From Aliivibrio fischeri ES114 (lineage in GTDB: Bacteria; Pseudomonadota; Gammaproteobacteria; Enterobacterales; Vibrionaceae): 32,000 nucleotides of DNA. Below the pieces are notes generated by a model. That model had not been told where the DNA came from. It searched no databases and worked only from the letters and a program-made list of their open reading frames with translations. The position numbers were made by a program, and so were the translations under genes. Shown here one piece after another: positions 7,585 through 31,847 of the stretch (positions within the stretch are counted from its first letter, which is position 1; every line of letters begins with the position of its first letter). The stretch is from the NCBI RefSeq assembly GCF_000011805.1, contig NC_006840.2; one strand, written 5' to 3'.

Positions 7585-8916
7585 ATGTACAAACCAAGAG
7601 GCTCTTTAGTCACCGCTTATCTTACTTTACTCATATCTACATCAGTTGTTGCGAGTAATACACCACTAAAAAAAGATAACGTGCCTCCATCAGAGTTGCC
7701 ACCAATTCAAATTAAGCATACACCCATGTTTATTAGTCTAGGCTTTGATGATAATGTCGAAAAAGATGGCCTAGAATGGGTTATTAAGGAATTGAAAAAG
7801 AACAAAAACCCAGATGGTAATGACCGCTTTGCTAACCTTCCCTTATCTGCTTCATTTTTTATGCATTGTGCTCCAGCACGTGAAAATACAGAAATAAAAA
7901 AGTTATGGCGTCAATTGGTTACGGATAATCATGATATTGGCAATCACACAGAAACACATCCTGACGATAAAGTGAATTATAATCCTTTAACATCATGGAT
8001 GACTCCAGAGCAATGGCACACAGAAGTTGCTGATTGTAATAAACTACTAATGGCAGCATCGGACAATGGTGGTCTAGGTATTGAACATGTTTCAGGTTTT
8101 CGTGCCCCTTACATGACATACAATGACAACACACTCAATGCATTAATTGAAAATAACATTGTTTATGATGTTAGCTTTCCTGCGGGAATTACACCTGAGC
8201 AAAATGGTCAAAACAACTACTGGCCATATACCCTAGATAATGGAAGCCCATCTCATAATGCAGCAGTCAGTGGTTGGTGGAAACCTGTTATAAATAACTA
8301 TCCCGGTTTATGGGAGATCCCCCTTCACACCTTAATTGTTCCGCCTGATGAACTATTAGAACAATATGAATTAAACTATTCTCTTAGAGATAAAATAGCG
8401 AGTCGTATTAGTTATTTCGATCCAATTTCTGGTAAAGGTGACAATTTTGATTGGAATTTATATTCAACACCTAATTGGGGAGCGGCCGGCCTTAATGAAA
8501 ATGATGTTGTTGCCATTTATAAATATAACCTAGATTTAAGAATACAAGGGAATCGAGCCCCACTTGTCCTTGGATTACATTCTGCATTCTATGGTTATAT
8601 TGGTGGTGAAGAACATATTGGAATGCCAGAAAGTAATGTCGATACACGTAGAAATGTTTTAAAACGTTTTATTAAATACGCTTTATCTAAACCTGAAGTA
8701 AGATTTGTAAACCATAAACAAATTATTGACTGGATGCGTACACCTGAACCTCTAACATTATGCCCACAGGAAGAATGGAAACCTCACCAAGTGTATATCA
8801 AAGGCGAAACCGTCAATTTCCAAGGCAAGATGTGGCAAGCGCAATGGTGGACTCAATTACAACAGCCAGGGCTGACTGAAAGCTCTCCATGGAAAAAAGT
8901 CACTTCTTGTACATAA
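7585..8916 (+). CDS. Secreted NodB-type polysaccharide/chitin-oligosaccharide deacetylase with a C-terminal chitin-binding (CBM5/12-like) module
   Basis: Signal peptide; NodB motifs (LGFDDN, GNHTETH); aromatic-rich C-terminal tail (YIKGETVNFQGKMWQAQWWTQ...PW) typical of CBM5/12. Confidence 0.8.
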   Translation: MYKPRGSLVTAYLTLLISTSVVASNTPLKKDNVPPSELPPIQIKHTPMFISLGFDDNVEKDGLEWVIKELKKNKNPDGNDRFANLPLSASFFMHCAPARENTEIKKLWRQLVTDNHDIGNHTETHPDDKVNYNPLTSWMTPEQWHTEVADCNKLLMAASDNGGLGIEHVSGFRAPYMTYNDNTLNALIENNIVYDVSFPAGITPEQNGQNNYWPYTLDNGSPSHNAAVSGWWKPVINNYPGLWEIPLHTLIVPPDELLEQYELNYSLRDKIASRISYFDPISGKGDNFDWNLYSTPNWGAAGLNENDVVAIYKYNLDLRIQGNRAPLVLGLHSAFYGYIGGEEHIGMPESNVDTRRNVLKRFIKYALSKPEVRFVNHKQIIDWMRTPEPLTLCPQEEWKPHQVYIKGETVNFQGKMWQAQWWTQLQQPGLTESSPWKKVTSCT

Positions 8917-8965
8917 CAAATACCAACGCCCCCTTTCTATTAGTAAAGGGGGTTCATTATCAAGG

Positions 8966-9514
8966 TTACACCCCTAGCGGATTAGGGAATTGCACTACTT
9001 TAATGTCATAAATTTTTGGTTTATACGTTTTACTGCCTTCCATTACATAAACGATTTCTACTTCACATTCCAAAACAGACTTAATGTTGGATAAACAAAT
9101 AAGCTCAGCTTCAGACAAGTGTTTTCCGGCCTTTTGTACTTTCACAAATAGCAAAGAACCATCCGGCTTAAATAAAAACAATTCAGGCTCACCAGCAGTT
9201 AACCCAGTTCTTATCCCTTTTAGTAAAGAAAGCTTCACAGGACAAATATACTGAGAAAGTAACACTCGGCCTGCATCATACAGAGAGTTCGACGTTGCAG
9301 AGTTACCTAAAGCATAAAACGCAGTCCCATACCATCCATTATCTAAATAATGTGTTAACGCATAGCACTCATGAAAATATTTATTAAAGTAGCTTTTACA
9401 GTCAACAAGCTCTGTTAAATCAATAGGTAACCAATCTTTGTTTCCTTTCTGCCACTCTTTTAATACCTGCTCTGGATACGTAATCACTTTTTCTTGTATC
9501 GTATAAATCATCAT
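8966..9514 (-). CDS. Hypothetical protein (182 aa), possible degenerate VRR-NUC/PD-(D/E)xK-like C-terminus
   Basis: Clean ORF. The C-terminal segment EPELFLFKPDGSLLFVKVQKAGKHLSEAELICL loosely resembles the VRR-NUC core (D/E...E/Q-V-K followed by L-S-x-x-Q). This is pattern-level only. Confidence 0.5.
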   Translation of the reverse strand: MMIYTIQEKVITYPEQVLKEWQKGNKDWLPIDLTELVDCKSYFNKYFHECYALTHYLDNGWYGTAFYALGNSATSNSLYDAGRVLLSQYICPVKLSLLKGIRTGLTAGEPELFLFKPDGSLLFVKVQKAGKHLSEAELICLSNIKSVLECEVEIVYVMEGSKTYKPKIYDIKVVQFPNPLGV

Positions 9515-26254: not shown

Positions 26255-26292
26255 AAAAAGCCGAACAAGTTACCCTGCTCGGCATTTTGAAT
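26255..26292. repeat. Left copy of a ~38-bp direct repeat; terminator-like hairpin (CCGAACA-AGTTACCC-TGCTCGG) with A/T runs
   Basis: AAAAAGCCGAACAAGTTACCCTGCTCGGCATTTTGAAT. It is nearly identical to 31811-31847 and sits downstream of the Nudix gene stop. Confidence 0.75.
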
Positions 26293-26940: not shown

Positions 26941-27096
26941 TTGAAACCCTCCTTGAACATAGAACCATAACTCTACCAAACCATTGGTAAAATTTATAAA
27001 CATGAAGGCGATTTATGCTAAGTAGCTATGATTTCAGGTAAGTTTAGTCTATTGAGGGAGAATGCTCGTTTGAAGTAGAGAGAAAAGATGCCGCTG

Positions 27097-27171
27097 CCAC
27101 GTTAAAAACTAAATGCAACGCATAGTAAAAATGCCATGCGTTGCGAATTACTTTTAAACAGATTGCTATAG
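27097..27171 (-). repeat. attC-like repeat R1 (degenerate copy)
   Basis: It aligns over ~75 bp with R2 and R3. The central stem is GCAACGCAT...ATGCGTTGC. The antitoxin stop codon (27166-27168) lies inside its gene-proximal end. The gene-proximal box reads CTATAGC rather than an ...AAC box. Confidence 0.5.
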
Positions 27172-27480
27172 TTCAGCGATGTGCGACAGAGTTTCGGGGT
27201 GGCGCTGAACCAACTTTAGAAGAGTAACAGCTTGCCCATTAGGTGCGCTGCGCCCCTGCTCCCAGTTTTCTAATGTACGTGATGATGTATGCAGTAAACG
27301 AGCGAATACACCACGAGACATATTGAATTGCTCACGAATACTCACAATTTCATCAGGCGAGATATCTAACTCACTGATGTCATTAACTTGGTGAGTTTTC
27401 AGGGTTACTTTACCCTCTGAATGCTCTTTAGCTTCAACAAGTGCTGAACTTAATTCAGTAAATAAGTCACGATTGCTCAT
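27166..27480 (-). CDS. HigA-2/COG2944-like XRE-HTH antitoxin (104 aa), no cognate toxin gene
   Basis: The N-terminal region MSNRDLFTELSSALVEAKEHSEGKVTLKTH is followed by an HTH (MSRGVFARLLHTSSRTLENWEQGRSAPNGQAVTLLKLV). The ATG at 27480 is preceded by GGAGG. The track's upstream extension to 27579 is a TTG read-through. Confidence 0.7.
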   Translation of the reverse strand: MSNRDLFTELSSALVEAKEHSEGKVTLKTHQVNDISELDISPDEIVSIREQFNMSRGVFARLLHTSSRTLENWEQGRSAPNGQAVTLLKLVQRHPETLSHIAEL

Positions 27481-27579: not shown

Positions 27580-27650
27580 AACTATACGTGATTAACGTAG
27601 TTATGAGTTTTGGGTCGGTAAATCTGACCTGAGCTATCGTCGCATTAAGT

Positions 27651-27736
27651 TGTAAACAACGCCTCCTTAAGCACTAAACGCAACGCATAGTAAAAATTCC
27701 ACGCGTTGCGAATCACTCTTAAACAAATTGTTAAAT
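27651..27736 (-). repeat. attC-like repeat R2
   Basis: In gene orientation it begins with ATTTAAC (fits RYYYAAC) directly after the TAA of the 462-aa ORF. The central stem is CGCAACGC...GCGTTGCG, with TTAAG/CTTAA and AACAA/TTGTT flank pairings. It ends in CGTTGTTTACA, a box shared with R3. Confidence 0.55.
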
Positions 27737-29125
27737 TTACACAGCAATCCAACTACTTTTCAGCCCGGTTGAGGAATCTTTTCTTTGAATCAAGCCTTTA
27801 TCTCTTAATTTAGAAAATTGGTACGTTACCTTTTCTGTTCGGTCTATACCTGTGAGATCTCGAGCTTGACGATTGTTAATTTCACCATTCGATTCGATGA
27901 ATTTCATGATTAAGGTCTCAGGATCATCATTGGAACTATGCCTTAATATAATCTTCACATAGTTTCCATCCTCCAGAATTTCAGGATCTCGAAGTCCCAT
28001 AGAACGCATACGTTGAAAAGCTGTATTCATGCCTTCACCTAAATCTTTATTTGGGGAGTCTTTATACTTGGATAAAATACGAACAATTTTCGAATTTCGT
28101 GAACATCTATTTTCGAGTATGTTTTCAGCAGTGACGAAACCAGTAAATCGACCTGGACTTTTAAACTCGATTCGGTTGTTGAAAATGCTAACCAACACAT
28201 TATCTGAGATTGCGTAATCACGATGAATAACAGTATTTACTAATATTTCCCAAATAGTTTCTTTCGGGTATTTAGTTTCTACTAATCCCTCTACTTTCCA
28301 TACCTTATTTTTAGATAAAAACAGCTCAATCTTAGAATATGCGTCCTGAATTTGTTGATATAAAGACCCTTCAATCGCGATATTGTCTTCAGTTAAAGCA
28401 TCTCTATCAATATCTTCACCATCTGTATCATAGCGGACAATCCGGATCGCACATTGCTTAGGTAGTTCTGCTGAAGGATTTTCCGCGAACAAAAGTACTG
28501 CAGCAACAGTTGGTGCCCATGTCTCAGAGTCGACCAACTTTTCTTTTAAAAGAAATGTTATAGGATCAGGTGCTCTAATTGGAAGCTCAGATAAGAACTT
28601 TGTAAGCTCAATACTAGAATCAAGCTCGTCTATTGAGGCAGAATTAACAAGAGAATCTTCTTCAGAAATTATTCCTTTCGCATGTGTTAACTCTAAGATC
28701 TTAATTGGCGCGGTTACTGGAAGAGACTGTGCCCCTTGTCGAAGAAAAATTTTTTTCTTCGCTGTTTCATGAACAGATAAACCTTTATTGATCTTAACCC
28801 TTAACACATAGTTCCGAGACTCATTAACTCTTGTTAAAAAATCAAAACGGAAATCAACAGAAGGTACAAGTTCACTCAACGCCTGAATAACCGAGTTATA
28901 AGCTTCTGTTGATTCTTGACCTTGCCATCTTTTTTCAGGAATAACTTCGTCTTTATCATCCGCAATTCCGACAAGTATTTCACCACCATCGGCATTAGCG
29001 AATGCAACAGCAATTTTTTGGACTTTTTCACCTTTTAGTCCAAATGCTTTTCTGTCGAAAAAATGGTCTTCATCTTTAGTACAATAATACAAAGATTCTT
29101 TTTCTTGTAATTCTACGATTTTCAC
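27737..29125 (-). CDS. AlbA_2 (Schlafen-like) + HATPase_c_4 + C-terminal wHTH protein (COG2865 architecture)
   Basis: N-terminal AlbA_2 pattern (E...DRKAFGLKGEKVQKIAVAFANADGGEILVGIADD). HATPase_c_4 pattern (WEILVNTVIHRDYAISDNVLVSIFNNRIEFKSPGRF). C-terminal HTH-like region (INNRQARDLTGIDRTEKVTYQFSKLRDKGLI). GTG start with AGGA 6 nt upstream. Confidence 0.8.
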   Translation of the reverse strand: MKIVELQEKESLYYCTKDEDHFFDRKAFGLKGEKVQKIAVAFANADGGEILVGIADDKDEVIPEKRWQGQESTEAYNSVIQALSELVPSVDFRFDFLTRVNESRNYVLRVKINKGLSVHETAKKKIFLRQGAQSLPVTAPIKILELTHAKGIISEEDSLVNSASIDELDSSIELTKFLSELPIRAPDPITFLLKEKLVDSETWAPTVAAVLLFAENPSAELPKQCAIRIVRYDTDGEDIDRDALTEDNIAIEGSLYQQIQDAYSKIELFLSKNKVWKVEGLVETKYPKETIWEILVNTVIHRDYAISDNVLVSIFNNRIEFKSPGRFTGFVTAENILENRCSRNSKIVRILSKYKDSPNKDLGEGMNTAFQRMRSMGLRDPEILEDGNYVKIILRHSSNDDPETLIMKFIESNGEINNRQARDLTGIDRTEKVTYQFSKLRDKGLIQRKDSSTGLKSSWIAV

Positions 29126-29160
29126 GGTAGTTCCTAATTAATTCACTCTTAAATACTTTG

Positions 29161-30426
29161 TTAAGCATTTCTTTTTGCTTTCTTACTAGCCCTGACTTCA
29201 TCAGCTATTGCTTTTAATGTTACTTCTTGATGCTTCAGGATATGCTGCAAATCATTGATAGGTAAAGTATACTGCTTTCTCATTTCCGATTCTTTATGCG
29301 AAGACTTACTTAATACCTCTTCAGACATACACTCATTTAATTTAATTTGAAAATGTAACTCATGGATACTTGCACTATGCATACGTTTTAATCTGTCATC
29401 TATTACAAGAAAGTTAATTTGATTTAACTTCAATATCTCCGAGAATTTATCATCGAACGAAACAAAGAAAGGCAAAAAAAACGAACCTAAAGCCGTAATT
29501 GTTGACATAGTTTCCAACGTTCGCATATGAGAAATGTCCCACGCCATTCCTTTTAGTGCTGTTTCAATATTTTTTGCAACATCGGCTACCGGACCAAAGA
29601 AACGTACACGCTTTGGTTTTTCTAGAAATTGAAGAGCTACAAGCAATTCATATTTTGGCAGTTTACCCAATTGCAACACACAAAAATCTATTAGTTTACG
29701 AAAGACCTCATCTGGTTTAGCTGGATTTTTTAACCACAAAATAGCTAATTCAAACAATATAATCTGAGTAAAAACAGCCTTATACTCTCGATTTTTAACC
29801 TCTTCATTGGTTACAAAACTTTCGTAATCCTCCTCCGACTCTTTTAGCAACTCTTGCTCGTTACACATGAATTTAGGCTTATAAGGATCTTTTTCAAAAC
29901 TTTCCCAGTCTATATGATCAAGTTTTTTAAAAGCTAAAATAGTGTTTAGGGGGCGAAGGTTTTTATTATCTTCACGTGACAACCTTAAATTCTCGAATAA
30001 AAATGGTACTAGATCCGTCTGAAGTGAGTACTCTTTTTTTAGCTTAATTAAAGTAATGATCCTATCTTGATCTTTCTTATTTATATTTTCATGATTCACA
30101 TAAGCTCTCACACGTTCACCAACATTCGAGTCAAAAGAGAAACTCCAATCGATCGGAACTGAAGATTGCCCACCAGTTAAATGACTTTGAAGAGCCGTAG
30201 AGGCAGAATTAAGGAATACCTTAGGTCCAATAAAAAGAGGTGTTATCCAAGGGGCTTTATTTGTTATATCTTCTAAATTAATATGCAAACCAGCTGCATT
30301 AGATGACTCTGTAGATATAACTGTCCGAATGTAAACTGCATCCTGAGGTCGAGAAATATTCTCCAACCTTTCTAAGTCACCATTTACCAGAATTTCATAA
30401 ATTTCATCTACTACAGGTCTTTCCAT
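29161..30426 (-). CDS. Hypothetical protein (421 aa), no recognisable family; weak PIN-like acidic motif pattern
   Basis: The ATG at 30426 is preceded by GAGGA, whereas the track start at 30525 would begin inside repeat R3. The protein is largely helical. The motifs are WSFSFDSNVG (D99), GMAWDISH (D297) and FFVSFDDKF (D325/D326). Confidence 0.7.
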   Translation of the reverse strand: MERPVVDEIYEILVNGDLERLENISRPQDAVYIRTVISTESSNAAGLHINLEDITNKAPWITPLFIGPKVFLNSASTALQSHLTGGQSSVPIDWSFSFDSNVGERVRAYVNHENINKKDQDRIITLIKLKKEYSLQTDLVPFLFENLRLSREDNKNLRPLNTILAFKKLDHIDWESFEKDPYKPKFMCNEQELLKESEEDYESFVTNEEVKNREYKAVFTQIILFELAILWLKNPAKPDEVFRKLIDFCVLQLGKLPKYELLVALQFLEKPKRVRFFGPVADVAKNIETALKGMAWDISHMRTLETMSTITALGSFFLPFFVSFDDKFSEILKLNQINFLVIDDRLKRMHSASIHELHFQIKLNECMSEEVLSKSSHKESEMRKQYTLPINDLQHILKHQEVTLKAIADEVRASKKAKRNA

Positions 30427-30466
30427 ATTTTCCTCAAACTTTGAAACGCTTAACGCTATGTTAAAA

Positions 30467-30571
30467 TGTAAGCAACGAAATATCGAAACTCCTGCATACC
30501 ACTTTAAACACAAAACGCAGCGCATATAAAAATGCTACGAGTTGCGAATCACTCATAAAAAATTGTTATAT
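30467..30571 (-). repeat. attC-like repeat R3
   Basis: In gene orientation it begins with ATATAAC (RYYYAAC-like) about 20 nt after the downstream ORF stop. The core aligns with R1 and R2. The distal box CGTTGCTTACA (30467-30477) matches R2, with ~21 nt of extra spacer. Confidence 0.55.
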
Positions 30572-30594: not shown

Positions 30595-31452
30595 CTATTT
30601 ATGTTTAAAACTTAGCTCATTATTTAGTTTATTTTCCAACGTTTGAACCTGCTTCACCATTGAATCTAGGGTTATCTCAGTTTCCTTAAGCTTCCAGCTA
30701 TTTTCTTCTGGGACACTCCCTTTAATTGCAATACCACTTTCCATCCACTTTATGAGAGTTTTATAGAACCCTAATATGCGCTATTGTTTCAGTATGTAAT
30801 CATCTAAATCGTCTGCCATTACCTGAAAAGGTCTGAATGCGTTATATCCTATGTATACAGCGGTGATAGATCCTTTAGGAAAACTATACATTGACATTAG
30901 TCGACCATTGATTAGCTCAGTTTTAAATAAGGAACGCTTCAACTGAAGCTCACCCACAACACGTACTTCTTCTTCGTAAGACCAATCTTGTGACTTGAAA
31001 AGAAATGTTCTTTTCAATATTTCTTCAGTGTTGTTTAGGAACTCACATTGATAAGAACTGGAATCATTATTTGTAGGCTTAGTTCTTGTATAAATCATAT
31101 CTCCTTTTGACGCTGGTATCACAAACTCATCCGAGTTTAATTGTGAAACTATAGAATCAAACTCAATTACAACACCCTCGTATGAGTTTGTATAATGAGC
31201 CCACATTAAAGGGTTTAGCGGTTCTCTTGTTAAAGATAAAACTCTATGATTTACTCTCGCTTTCAATAGGACTTGGCTTATTGTGGTCATAGCAGCACAA
31301 TCCGAATTATGGCTAGATTCCCATAACCCCGTAGCTCTCCCCTCGAAAGGATAATTAAAGTTATCAATTTGATTGAAACCAATTTTTAATGTTTCAATGA
31401 TTTTTTCAGCAGCACTAAATGAAGTGTACTTATATAACCCATTATGTAATTT
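30595..31452 (-). pseudogene. DUF2971-family gene, apparently disrupted (start-proximal frameshift plus in-frame TAG)
   Basis: The open frame from 31452 translates as KLHNGLYKYTSFSAAEKIIETL...NFNYPFE...LMWAHYTNSYEGVVIEFD, which are DUF2971 hallmarks. It has no in-frame start before 31290. An ATG at 31442 with one missing base would give M-G-L-Y-K-Y. After the TAG at 30781-30783 the same frame continues for 61 more codons to 30595. Confidence 0.55.
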
Positions 31453-31810: not shown

Positions 31811-31847
31811 AAAAAACCGAGCAAGTTACCCTGCTCGGCTTTTGAAT
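31811..31847. repeat. Right copy of the ~38-bp direct repeat; terminator hairpin (CCGAGCA-AGTTACCC-TGCTCGG)
   Basis: AAAAAACCGAGCAAGTTACCCTGCTCGGCTTTTGAAT. It serves as the terminator of the partial gene at 31875-32000 and is near-identical to 26255-26292. Confidence 0.75.

Follow-up and report, generated by a model that had tools for sequence, protein, structure and literature searches.

Two adjacent genes in an attC island of Aliivibrio fischeri ES114: very probably fused integron cassettes, one Schlafen-type and one orphan, and not a defence operon

Two genes of Aliivibrio fischeri ES114, VF_1355 and VF_1354, lie side by side on one strand in a 32,000-nucleotide stretch of contig NC_006840.2 (assembly GCF_000011805.1), which is called the window here. 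Are they the two halves of one defence module, or two unrelated genes that were brought together by the decay of a recombination site? The first-pass annotation of this DNA described them as a two-gene cassette, and proposed that an orphan protein and a Schlafen-like ATPase protein act together as a sensor/effector module outside the named systems. The observation was right and the interpretation largely wrong. The best overall explanation, which we consider likely, is that two unrelated cassettes were fused, that VF_1354 is a Schlafen-type protein, and that VF_1355 is a solo gene. The pair is situated on chromosome I in an island of ~5.5 kb, with the fdn operon at one side and a GGDEF gene at the other. 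An exact-sequence look-up assigned the locus names of the 421-amino-acid (aa) protein (VF_1355), the 462-aa protein (VF_1354) and the neighbouring DUF2971 protein (VF_1356). The features at the centre of the question are the following:

27737..29125, minus strand: VF_1354, the 462-aa gene, with a GTG start codon at 29125-29123 and an AGGA motif at 29135-29132
29126-29160: the 35-nucleotide (nt) gap between VF_1355 and VF_1354
29161..30426, minus strand: VF_1355, the 421-aa gene, a rare unannotated family member

As first described, two co-oriented open reading frames (ORFs) lie 35 nt apart between attC-like repeats, on the minus strand, and these repeats are real and non-random. Read on that strand, they open with (A/T)TAAC-AATTT-(G)TTTAAGAGTGATTCGCAACGC, and from end to end they can be aligned with the attC sites located behind this 462-aa gene in Vibrio sp. 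Sgm5 and Vibrio cholerae. The pattern TAACAANNNNTTTAAGAGTGA has three matches in the window even when up to three mismatches are allowed (0.36 expected), each located right after a minus-strand stop codon. What the first-pass annotation missed is that the gap between the two genes itself holds the beginning of a fourth attC. The sequence GCTTAACAAAGTATTTAAGAGTGA, at 29166..29143, corresponds to the first ~24 nt of such a site, matches the pattern with 0 mismatches and then breaks off; its R'' box (GCTTAAC) overlaps the TAA stop codon of VF_1355. Abutting this half site, only the last ~15-20 nt of the leader of the VF_1354 cassette, TTAGGAACTACCGTG, survive. Both genes do stand between attC-type repeats, but the half site makes two cassettes of the supposed single one. 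The sites are:

30448..30571, minus strand: complete attC, similar to the V. cholerae repeat (VCR), of the cassette that carries the DUF2971 gene and a 49-aa ORF, aligned to Vibrio sp. Sgm5 and V. cholerae attC
29141..29166, minus strand: cut-off attC of the 421-aa cassette, of which only R'' (GCTTAAC) and the start of L'' (TTTAAGAGTGA) are left
29126..29140, minus strand: remaining leader of the 462-aa cassette with AGGA, which aligns with the last ~20 nt of the Sgm5 leader
27632..27736, minus strand: attC of the 462-aa cassette, 105 nt by our boundary reading
27047..27171, minus strand: degenerate attC after an MqsA-like antitoxin cassette, with R'' TATAGC and R' AATAGA

In the complete site, R'' (ATATAAC) occupies 30571-30565 and R' (GTTAAGC) 30454-30448, and the 421-aa cassette starts at the TT of R' (30453). 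The attC of the 462-aa cassette lacks ~21 central alignment columns of the Sgm5 site and has GATAGCT as R' instead of GTTAGTC.

Elsewhere, each of the two genes is found as a separate cassette with its own boundaries. The 462-aa gene occurs in V. cholerae (87% identity) on four contigs with different upstream neighbours and with superintegron genes (DUF645, DUF3709) around it, and in Vibrio sp. Sgm5 (96% identity) among ParE/Phd cassettes. In these five contexts the attC before the gene is complete and ends in ...GGCG↓TTAAATTTA (the arrow marks the boundary), 25-35 nt ahead of the start codon; the identity between contexts starts exactly at the TT of G↓TTAAATTTA, and in both V. cholerae and Sgm5 the gene is directly followed at its 3' side by an attC of its own. 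The homologue of the 421-aa gene in V. parahaemolyticus (93% identity) is a single cassette in an array of acetyltransferase, HIT and glyoxalase cassettes, and the next gene is an unrelated one of 269 aa. The left boundary of this cassette, G↓TTAAGC, located 27 nt before the ATG, is common to the window, V. parahaemolyticus, a Logan contig and V. cyclitrophicus, while upstream of it the four contexts differ completely. Downstream of the gene, V. parahaemolyticus has a full attC against the 24 nt that are left in the window.

Two further contexts show these genes away from arrays. In V. cyclitrophicus (loci L002/L003/L004, about 7975-9280) the 421-aa cassette lies between matE and gcvP, its flanks are not attC, and the homology begins exactly at GTT↓AAGC and ends just past the R'' core; this copy resembles a cassette that entered at a secondary GTT site and has lost its attC. 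In V. chagasii (L022-L024; L022:6001-7389) a 95%-identical 462-aa gene is found without any 421-type gene. Just ahead of it is a block of small genes which encode, among others, PM2-type coat-protein domains (P2_N/P2_C) and an M15 peptidase, and a ParE/Phd pair follows. This region looks phage-derived and, because the V. chagasii copy follows the coat-protein gene block, the 462-aa gene appears to travel in phage-derived regions as well as in integrons.

The co-occurrence of the two genes was examined by tblastn of both proteins against 24 related loci, with which the gene tables agree. None of the 24 carries both genes: a 462-type gene is absent from all 15 loci with a 421-aa homologue (0/15), and a 421-type gene from all nine with a 462-aa homologue (0/9). 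Among the sampled contigs the pair was found only in A. fischeri, always in the same island. The first-pass annotation had itself named this comparison among those that could refute its module and, by that criterion, since the pair does not hold together in other taxa, the two-gene module is refuted. VF_1355 and VF_1354 are thus, with high confidence, independent cassettes fused by attC decay. In the proposed sequence of events, a deletion of roughly 100 nt of attC and about 15 nt of the next cassette would have welded the two units, after which the integrase would no longer be able to move VF_1355 and VF_1354 separately; the cassettes of this island are probably fixed in place.

Two points weigh against this account. 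The attC bottom-strand DNA folds (ViennaRNA) have z-scores of -1.4 to +0.4 relative to shuffles, and pairing of the R boxes in the minimum-free-energy structure was seen for the V. parahaemolyticus site only. What identifies these sites as attC is their homology and their boundaries, and not a predicted structure. Furthermore, the two genes are probably co-transcribed: no terminator is predicted in the 35-nt gap, which makes co-transcription plausible, and to this extent the earlier suggestion of an operon holds. Given this, the pair may have acquired a functional interaction in A. fischeri.

The starts of both genes could also be settled. The GTG start of VF_1354, with its own AGGA 6 nt upstream, was confirmed, and its homologues begin at the same codon, which is ATG in V. 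cholerae. For VF_1355, the mechanical ORF extends to 30525 (454 aa), and this extension lies within the preceding attC. The leader GAGGAAAA.ATG is common to four independent contexts; this shared leader and the cassette boundary G↓TTAAGC at 30454-30448 place the start at 30426. In database records the 421-aa gene is annotated as 454 aa on 75 contigs, and the additional N-terminal part (30427-30525, minus strand), translated from the preceding attC, is almost certainly not real.

With the module set aside, what is each protein likely to do? VF_1355 belongs to a small family. A word-indexed search retrieved 33 clusters among 5.8 billion, and an exhaustive HMMER search 327 cluster representatives at E<1e-3, nearly all of 410-430 aa, a narrow length range which implies one conserved architecture. 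Relatives outside Vibrio (Pseudomonas, Halomonas, Pseudoalteromonas) share 56-64% identity with VF_1355 and their distribution is patchy; scans for further loci yielded one among genome contigs and two among metagenome contigs. The earlier statement that the protein has no recognised family is sustained: VF_1355 itself has no match in Pfam, NCBIfam or PADLOC, no Pfam domain was found among its homologues, and 90 diverse family members gave no consistent match in Pfam, PADLOC or PHROGs (two isolated PADLOC matches at E ~5e-3). The family profile matched nothing among Protein Data Bank (PDB) sequences, and a homologue search with it added no annotated relative.

The AlphaFold2 model of VF_1355 has a mean predicted local distance difference test (pLDDT) score of 89, and Foldseek searches with it against PDB and BFVD returned no match. 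The prediction is of a soluble protein of the alpha/beta type that carries a helical insertion. The positions that are near-invariant across the broad family are D99, E145 (invariant), F276-F277, W296-D297, P319, D325 and R383; on the model, D99 is found where a strand ends and E145 in the helix that comes after the following strand, the helical insertion of ~125 residues is next, and D325 then closes a further strand. Such a cluster of near-invariant acidic and basic residues suggests an enzyme that depends on metal and whose substrate is phosphorylated or a nucleic acid. That it is specifically a nuclease is a tentative idea, which we hold to be unlikely. A PIN-like nuclease was considered, prompted by an FSFDSNV motif and the D-E-D-D order, and every test was negative. 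The order itself is PIN-compatible (D99 after a strand, E145 in a helix, D325 and D343 after strands), but D297 lies in the middle of a helix and, across the broad family, D343 is not kept. Pfam searches with full proteins and spliced cores and the PDB profile search gave nothing, and hhalign against a VapC sequence gave nothing significant. By eye, PD-(D/E)xK (D325-x-K327), HEPN, Toprim, DEDD and RNase H were rejected also, the motifs being unconserved in the broad family or the order wrong.

The genomic habitats of the family are more informative. In ~16 contexts VF_1355-type genes are always solo and have no recurring partner. The Pseudomonas aeruginosa copy follows an integrase and is beside Gabija, the P. 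chlororaphis copy is beside Pycsar, the Pseudoalteromonas copy is beside an integrase, and the copies from a marine metagenome and from Halomonas are next to an IS3 element. Other contigs place the gene as follows:

L030, IMG/VR P2-like prophage: the gene comes after a C-type repressor and an integrase and overlaps the integrase stop by 4 nt (contig end)
L032, IMG/VR P2-like prophage: the gene comes after a CI repressor and one small gene (contig end)
L033, IMG/VR P2-like prophage: the gene lies between tail genes R/S and baseplate gene V
L034: the gene is next to type I restriction-modification (R-M) genes hsdS/hsdR and an insertion sequence (IS) element
L031: the gene is near a ShosA-like DprA homologue, a zeta toxin and a DUF4041-T5orf172 protein

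In P2-related phages of Vibrionaceae, the region from cI to int has been described as a hotspot of defence genes (Rousset et al., 2022, PMC9122126). On the three P2-like contigs, the positions of the VF_1355 family are comparable to those of known accessory anti-phage genes of such prophages (old, tin and the genes of the cI-int hotspot), but the family shows no sequence similarity and no detected structural similarity to the known hotspot cargo. When the surroundings of 16 family members (146 ORFs, up to 5 kb away) were scanned with PADLOC, the matches included GajA (3e-277), GajB (3.5e-232), PD-Lambda-1 (2.3e-232), REase_I (1.7e-158), PycC (1.5e-154) and ShosA (2.6e-102).

Two of these loci deserve a separate remark. 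The P. aeruginosa locus (L006; 1-7712, 9329-17257) is a dense defence island which contains Gabija, an SLFN-g3 helicase-domain protein, a MazG-like protein, SymE, a 2,099-aa kinase-helicase-MTES protein, several DUF78xx genes and a strong PD-Lambda-1 PADLOC match that was not assigned to an ORF. The 421-family gene of L035 (691-1931), an IMG/VR contig that also has a Zot-type gene of filamentous phages, is split into ORFs 691-1005 and 1167-1931, and is possibly a pseudogene or the result of a sequencing frameshift.

Is VF_1355, then, a defence gene? By itself it is a fair candidate for an undescribed single-gene function in defence or competition, and not a partner of VF_1354. It would act on its own, and its habitats suggest a single-gene anti-phage or inter-element competition role. 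Several facts tell against this. The scan of neighbours had no matched control; several contexts are not defence-like (for example Pseudomonas sp. B21-053, the matE/gcvP position in V. cyclitrophicus, and a metagenome copy by hydrogenase genes); and the idea of a PIN nuclease failed. Because of the missing control and of these contexts, we place a defence-related function a little short of an even chance. The opposite reading, that VF_1355 has nothing to do with phage defence and hitch-hikes in variable regions, either as an accessory enzyme of metabolism or maintenance or as a gene of mobile elements for anti-defence or addiction, is possible and only somewhat less probable. It agrees with the lack of a match to any defence model, with the contexts without defence genes, and with the many non-defence genes of integron arrays, such as acetyltransferases. 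On the contrary, it accounts poorly for the recurrence of the gene in prophage accessory positions, including lysogeny operons, for its adjacency to Gabija, Pycsar, ShosA and type I R-M genes, and for its patchy spread over Vibrio, Pseudomonas, Halomonas and Pseudoalteromonas. The most specific proposal, of a new single-gene anti-phage or inter-element competition enzyme whose fold has no detectable solved or viral relative and which spreads as integron cassette and prophage cargo, is more doubtful still and can only be put forward tentatively.

The identity of VF_1354 is much clearer. PADLOC and the comparison of models by Foldseek, both proposed in the first-pass annotation, were blank for VF_1355 and informative for this protein. 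Its described architecture (AlbA_2, HATPase_c_4 and winged helix) was borne out by Pfam and by the AlphaFold2 model (pLDDT 86.6): Pfam detects SLFN_AlbA_2 (PF04326) at residues 19-137 (E 1.4e-16) and HATPase_c_4 (PF13749) at residues 309-394 (E 2.3e-12). In the window, all on the minus strand, these parts are:

28715-29071: AlbA_2 domain
27944-28201: HATPase_c_4 domain
about 27743-27922: winged helix-turn-helix (wHTH)

No Pfam helix-turn-helix (HTH) model matches the C-terminus. In the predicted model it consists of helices 402-413, 418-425 and 430-442 and strands 446-448 and 458-461, and such a set of three helices and a hairpin is consistent with a winged helix. The family is large, with more than 1,449 clusters at E<1e-20, and its members are named in databases 'RNA-binding domain-containing', 'ATP-binding' or, wrongly, 'RecG'. 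In 30 homologues, down to 47% identity, the Ex4DxK triad (E19, D24, K26) is invariant, as are the GHKL residues E293, N297, HRDY301-304, SPG323-325 and GEG363-365. The Foldseek matches of the model are:

3LMM, Corynebacterium diphtheriae DIP2311, full length: E 1.8e-19
Nuclease domains of SLFN14, 11, 13, 5 and 12 and of SAMD9 (tRNase domain): E 1e-5 to 1e-4
Histidine-kinase catalytic domains: E 3e-3 to 3e-2

DIP2311 is the best whole-length structural match and is also found by sequence profile (E 4.7e-11), but it shares only 15-18% identity with VF_1354 and, as a structural-genomics protein without assigned function, adds no mechanism. With PADLOC, VF_1354 aligns to positions 55-459 of the 1121-position prokaryotic Argonaute (pAgo) model (E 1e-21), and this region is the Schlafen-GHKL head of the Schlafen (SLFN)-pAgos. 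SLFN-pAgo proteins such as RzAgo thus have an N-terminal Schlafen-GHKL supradomain in common with VF_1354, which differs in lacking the Argonaute core and in having a wHTH of ~60 residues in place of the guide-dependent sensor.

The 462-aa protein is consequently not outside the named systems. VF_1354 falls, as an ordinary representative, into a class that already has a name: 'Schlatpase' with a C-terminal HTH. The prokaryotic Schlafens (pSlfn) have been catalogued in 5,930 proteins, of which Slfn-HisKinase accounts for 34.0% and Slfn-HisKinase-HTH for 19.2% (Perez Taboada et al., Nat Microbiol 2026, PMC13056530). The name Schlatpase designates the pair SLFN+GHKL, present in 60,692 proteins, most of them small, and more than 90% of the C-terminal tails of these proteins hold an HTH (Kuzmenko et al., bioRxiv 10.64898/2026.05.29.728809). 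With the Slfn-HisKinase-HTH or Schlatpase-HTH proteins, VF_1354 shares the three-part architecture, an intact Ex4(E/D)xK and the conserved GHKL motifs, together with structural matches to Schlafen nuclease domains and occurrence in mobile and defence contexts.

What these proteins do has been established in relatives. Cleavage of tRNA or RNA and protection against phage are known for RorSlfn5, EcoSlfn7 and RzAgo. Phage-triggered tRNA cleavage has been shown for other Schlafen fusions (PMC13056530), and in RzAgo ATP binding leads to tetramerisation, which activates the Schlafen nuclease for tRNA cleavage (bioRxiv 10.64898/2026.05.29.728809). By analogy, ATP binding by VF_1354 would drive oligomerisation and assemble an active Schlafen nuclease, which would cleave tRNA and halt translation in infected cells, with the HTH tail as the likely sensor or regulator. 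We lean slightly towards VF_1354 being a defence tRNase of this kind. Two published observations pull the other way: Schlafen-HisKinase fusions tested in Escherichia coli gave no protection against the phage panel used, and for about 30% of the pSlfn genes no defence genes are nearby (PMC13056530). For the exact small Schlatpase-HTH architecture, the cited class literature reports no phage-protection phenotype, the tested HisKinase fusions being negative.

These same observations, and the C-terminal winged helix, could be taken as signs that VF_1354 does no more than bind DNA as a transcription factor (the legacy COG2865 view), its Schlafen domain being degenerate or not immune. Against this stand the invariance of the Ex4DxK and GHKL ATP-binding motifs in the 30 homologues, the movement of the gene as an integron cassette and its place beside a toxin-antitoxin (TA) pair in a phage-derived region, and the fact that in RzAgo the homologous Schlafen-GHKL module has been seen to bind ATP, form tetramers and cleave tRNA; we regard this alternative as improbable.

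The reading of the two genes as one sensor/effector defence operon, with the orphan protein as sensor or effector partner to the Schlafen-ATPase one, fares worse and is very unlikely. The orientation of the genes, their 35-nt spacing without a predicted terminator, their constant association in the sampled A. fischeri contigs and the defence flavour of the island would all suit it. Nonetheless, such an operon would be expected neither to fall apart in all 24 related loci from other taxa, where each gene forms a separate cassette with its own boundaries and attC, nor to have half an attC in its intergenic gap; moreover, most Schlatpase proteins stand alone, and the 421 family showed no conserved partner in ~16 contexts. 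That the repeats are ordinary terminators or repetitive extragenic palindromic (REP)-like elements and the genes a native operon is hardly credible: attC DNA folding no better than shuffles, the absence of a nearby integrase and one repeat flagged as terminator-like may speak for it, but along their whole length the repeats can be aligned with attC sites by which these genes are bounded in the V. cholerae, Sgm5 and V. parahaemolyticus arrays, and the homology breaks exactly at G↓TT.

The fusion of two cassettes fits the nature of the island as a whole. No integrase was found within 7 kb either side of it, the genes there being fdnGHI-like, GGDEF and peptidase genes, and because of this the island is assigned as a small cluster of attC sites lacking an integrase (CALIN-like) and not as a working integron. 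Integron cassettes have been described as carriers of small phage-defence systems (bioRxiv 10.1101/2024.07.02.601719; PMC12614218). Compared with the integron cassettes and CALIN of these studies, the island likewise consists of single-gene units bounded by attC and exchanged at G↓TT, the same cassettes occur in other Vibrio arrays, and the content is defence-like; it differs in that its sites are decaying, one being cut off and two having mutated R' boxes. The neighbours announced in the first-pass annotation, an antitoxin and a DUF2971 protein, were both found by Pfam, the former being of the MqsA type. The defence flavour of the island is likewise upheld by the Schlafen-type protein and by PADLOC candidate matches for DUF2971 (PDC-S31) and for a NUDIX gene (PDC-S07). 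No mention of VF_1353 to VF_1356 was found in the literature.

Some other features of the island can be recorded here. The MqsA/NadS-like HTH antitoxin cassette (27166-27480, minus strand) has no toxin gene and lies only ~145 nt from the preceding attC; its mechanical ORF of 137 aa (TTG start) is probably too long, with an ATG start that gives 104 aa being likely. The 49-aa ORF (30595-30744, minus strand) belongs to the same cassette as the DUF2971 gene, upstream of the intact attC. A promoter scan remained at background level (23 found, 19 expected). Finally, the island is bracketed by two GC-rich hairpins:

31811..31843: terminator-like hairpin of 33 nt where the island borders on fdn, repeated directly at 26255-26287
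26255..26287: the other 33-nt copy, on the far border of the ~5.5-kb island

The two are 91% identical, both score as terminator-like and they enclose the whole island. They are the only two copies across the window, where 0 are expected, and they may be the trace of an insertion at the terminator of the fdn operon in which this terminator was duplicated.

It is important to note what this locus means for the interpretation of similar ones. In cassette arrays, guilt by adjacency must be used with caution, since the decay of an attC can mimic an operon; the half site left in the gap is the tell-tale. The VF_1355 family, made of solo genes with a confidently predicted structure, a conserved charged site and prophage and defence-island contexts, is a reasonable candidate for defence screens. 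VF_1354, in turn, offers an ordinary Schlatpase-HTH gene, of the most common Schlafen architecture, which is still without a phenotype; its host, A. fischeri ES114, is a tractable squid symbiont in which native vibriophages could be used for testing.

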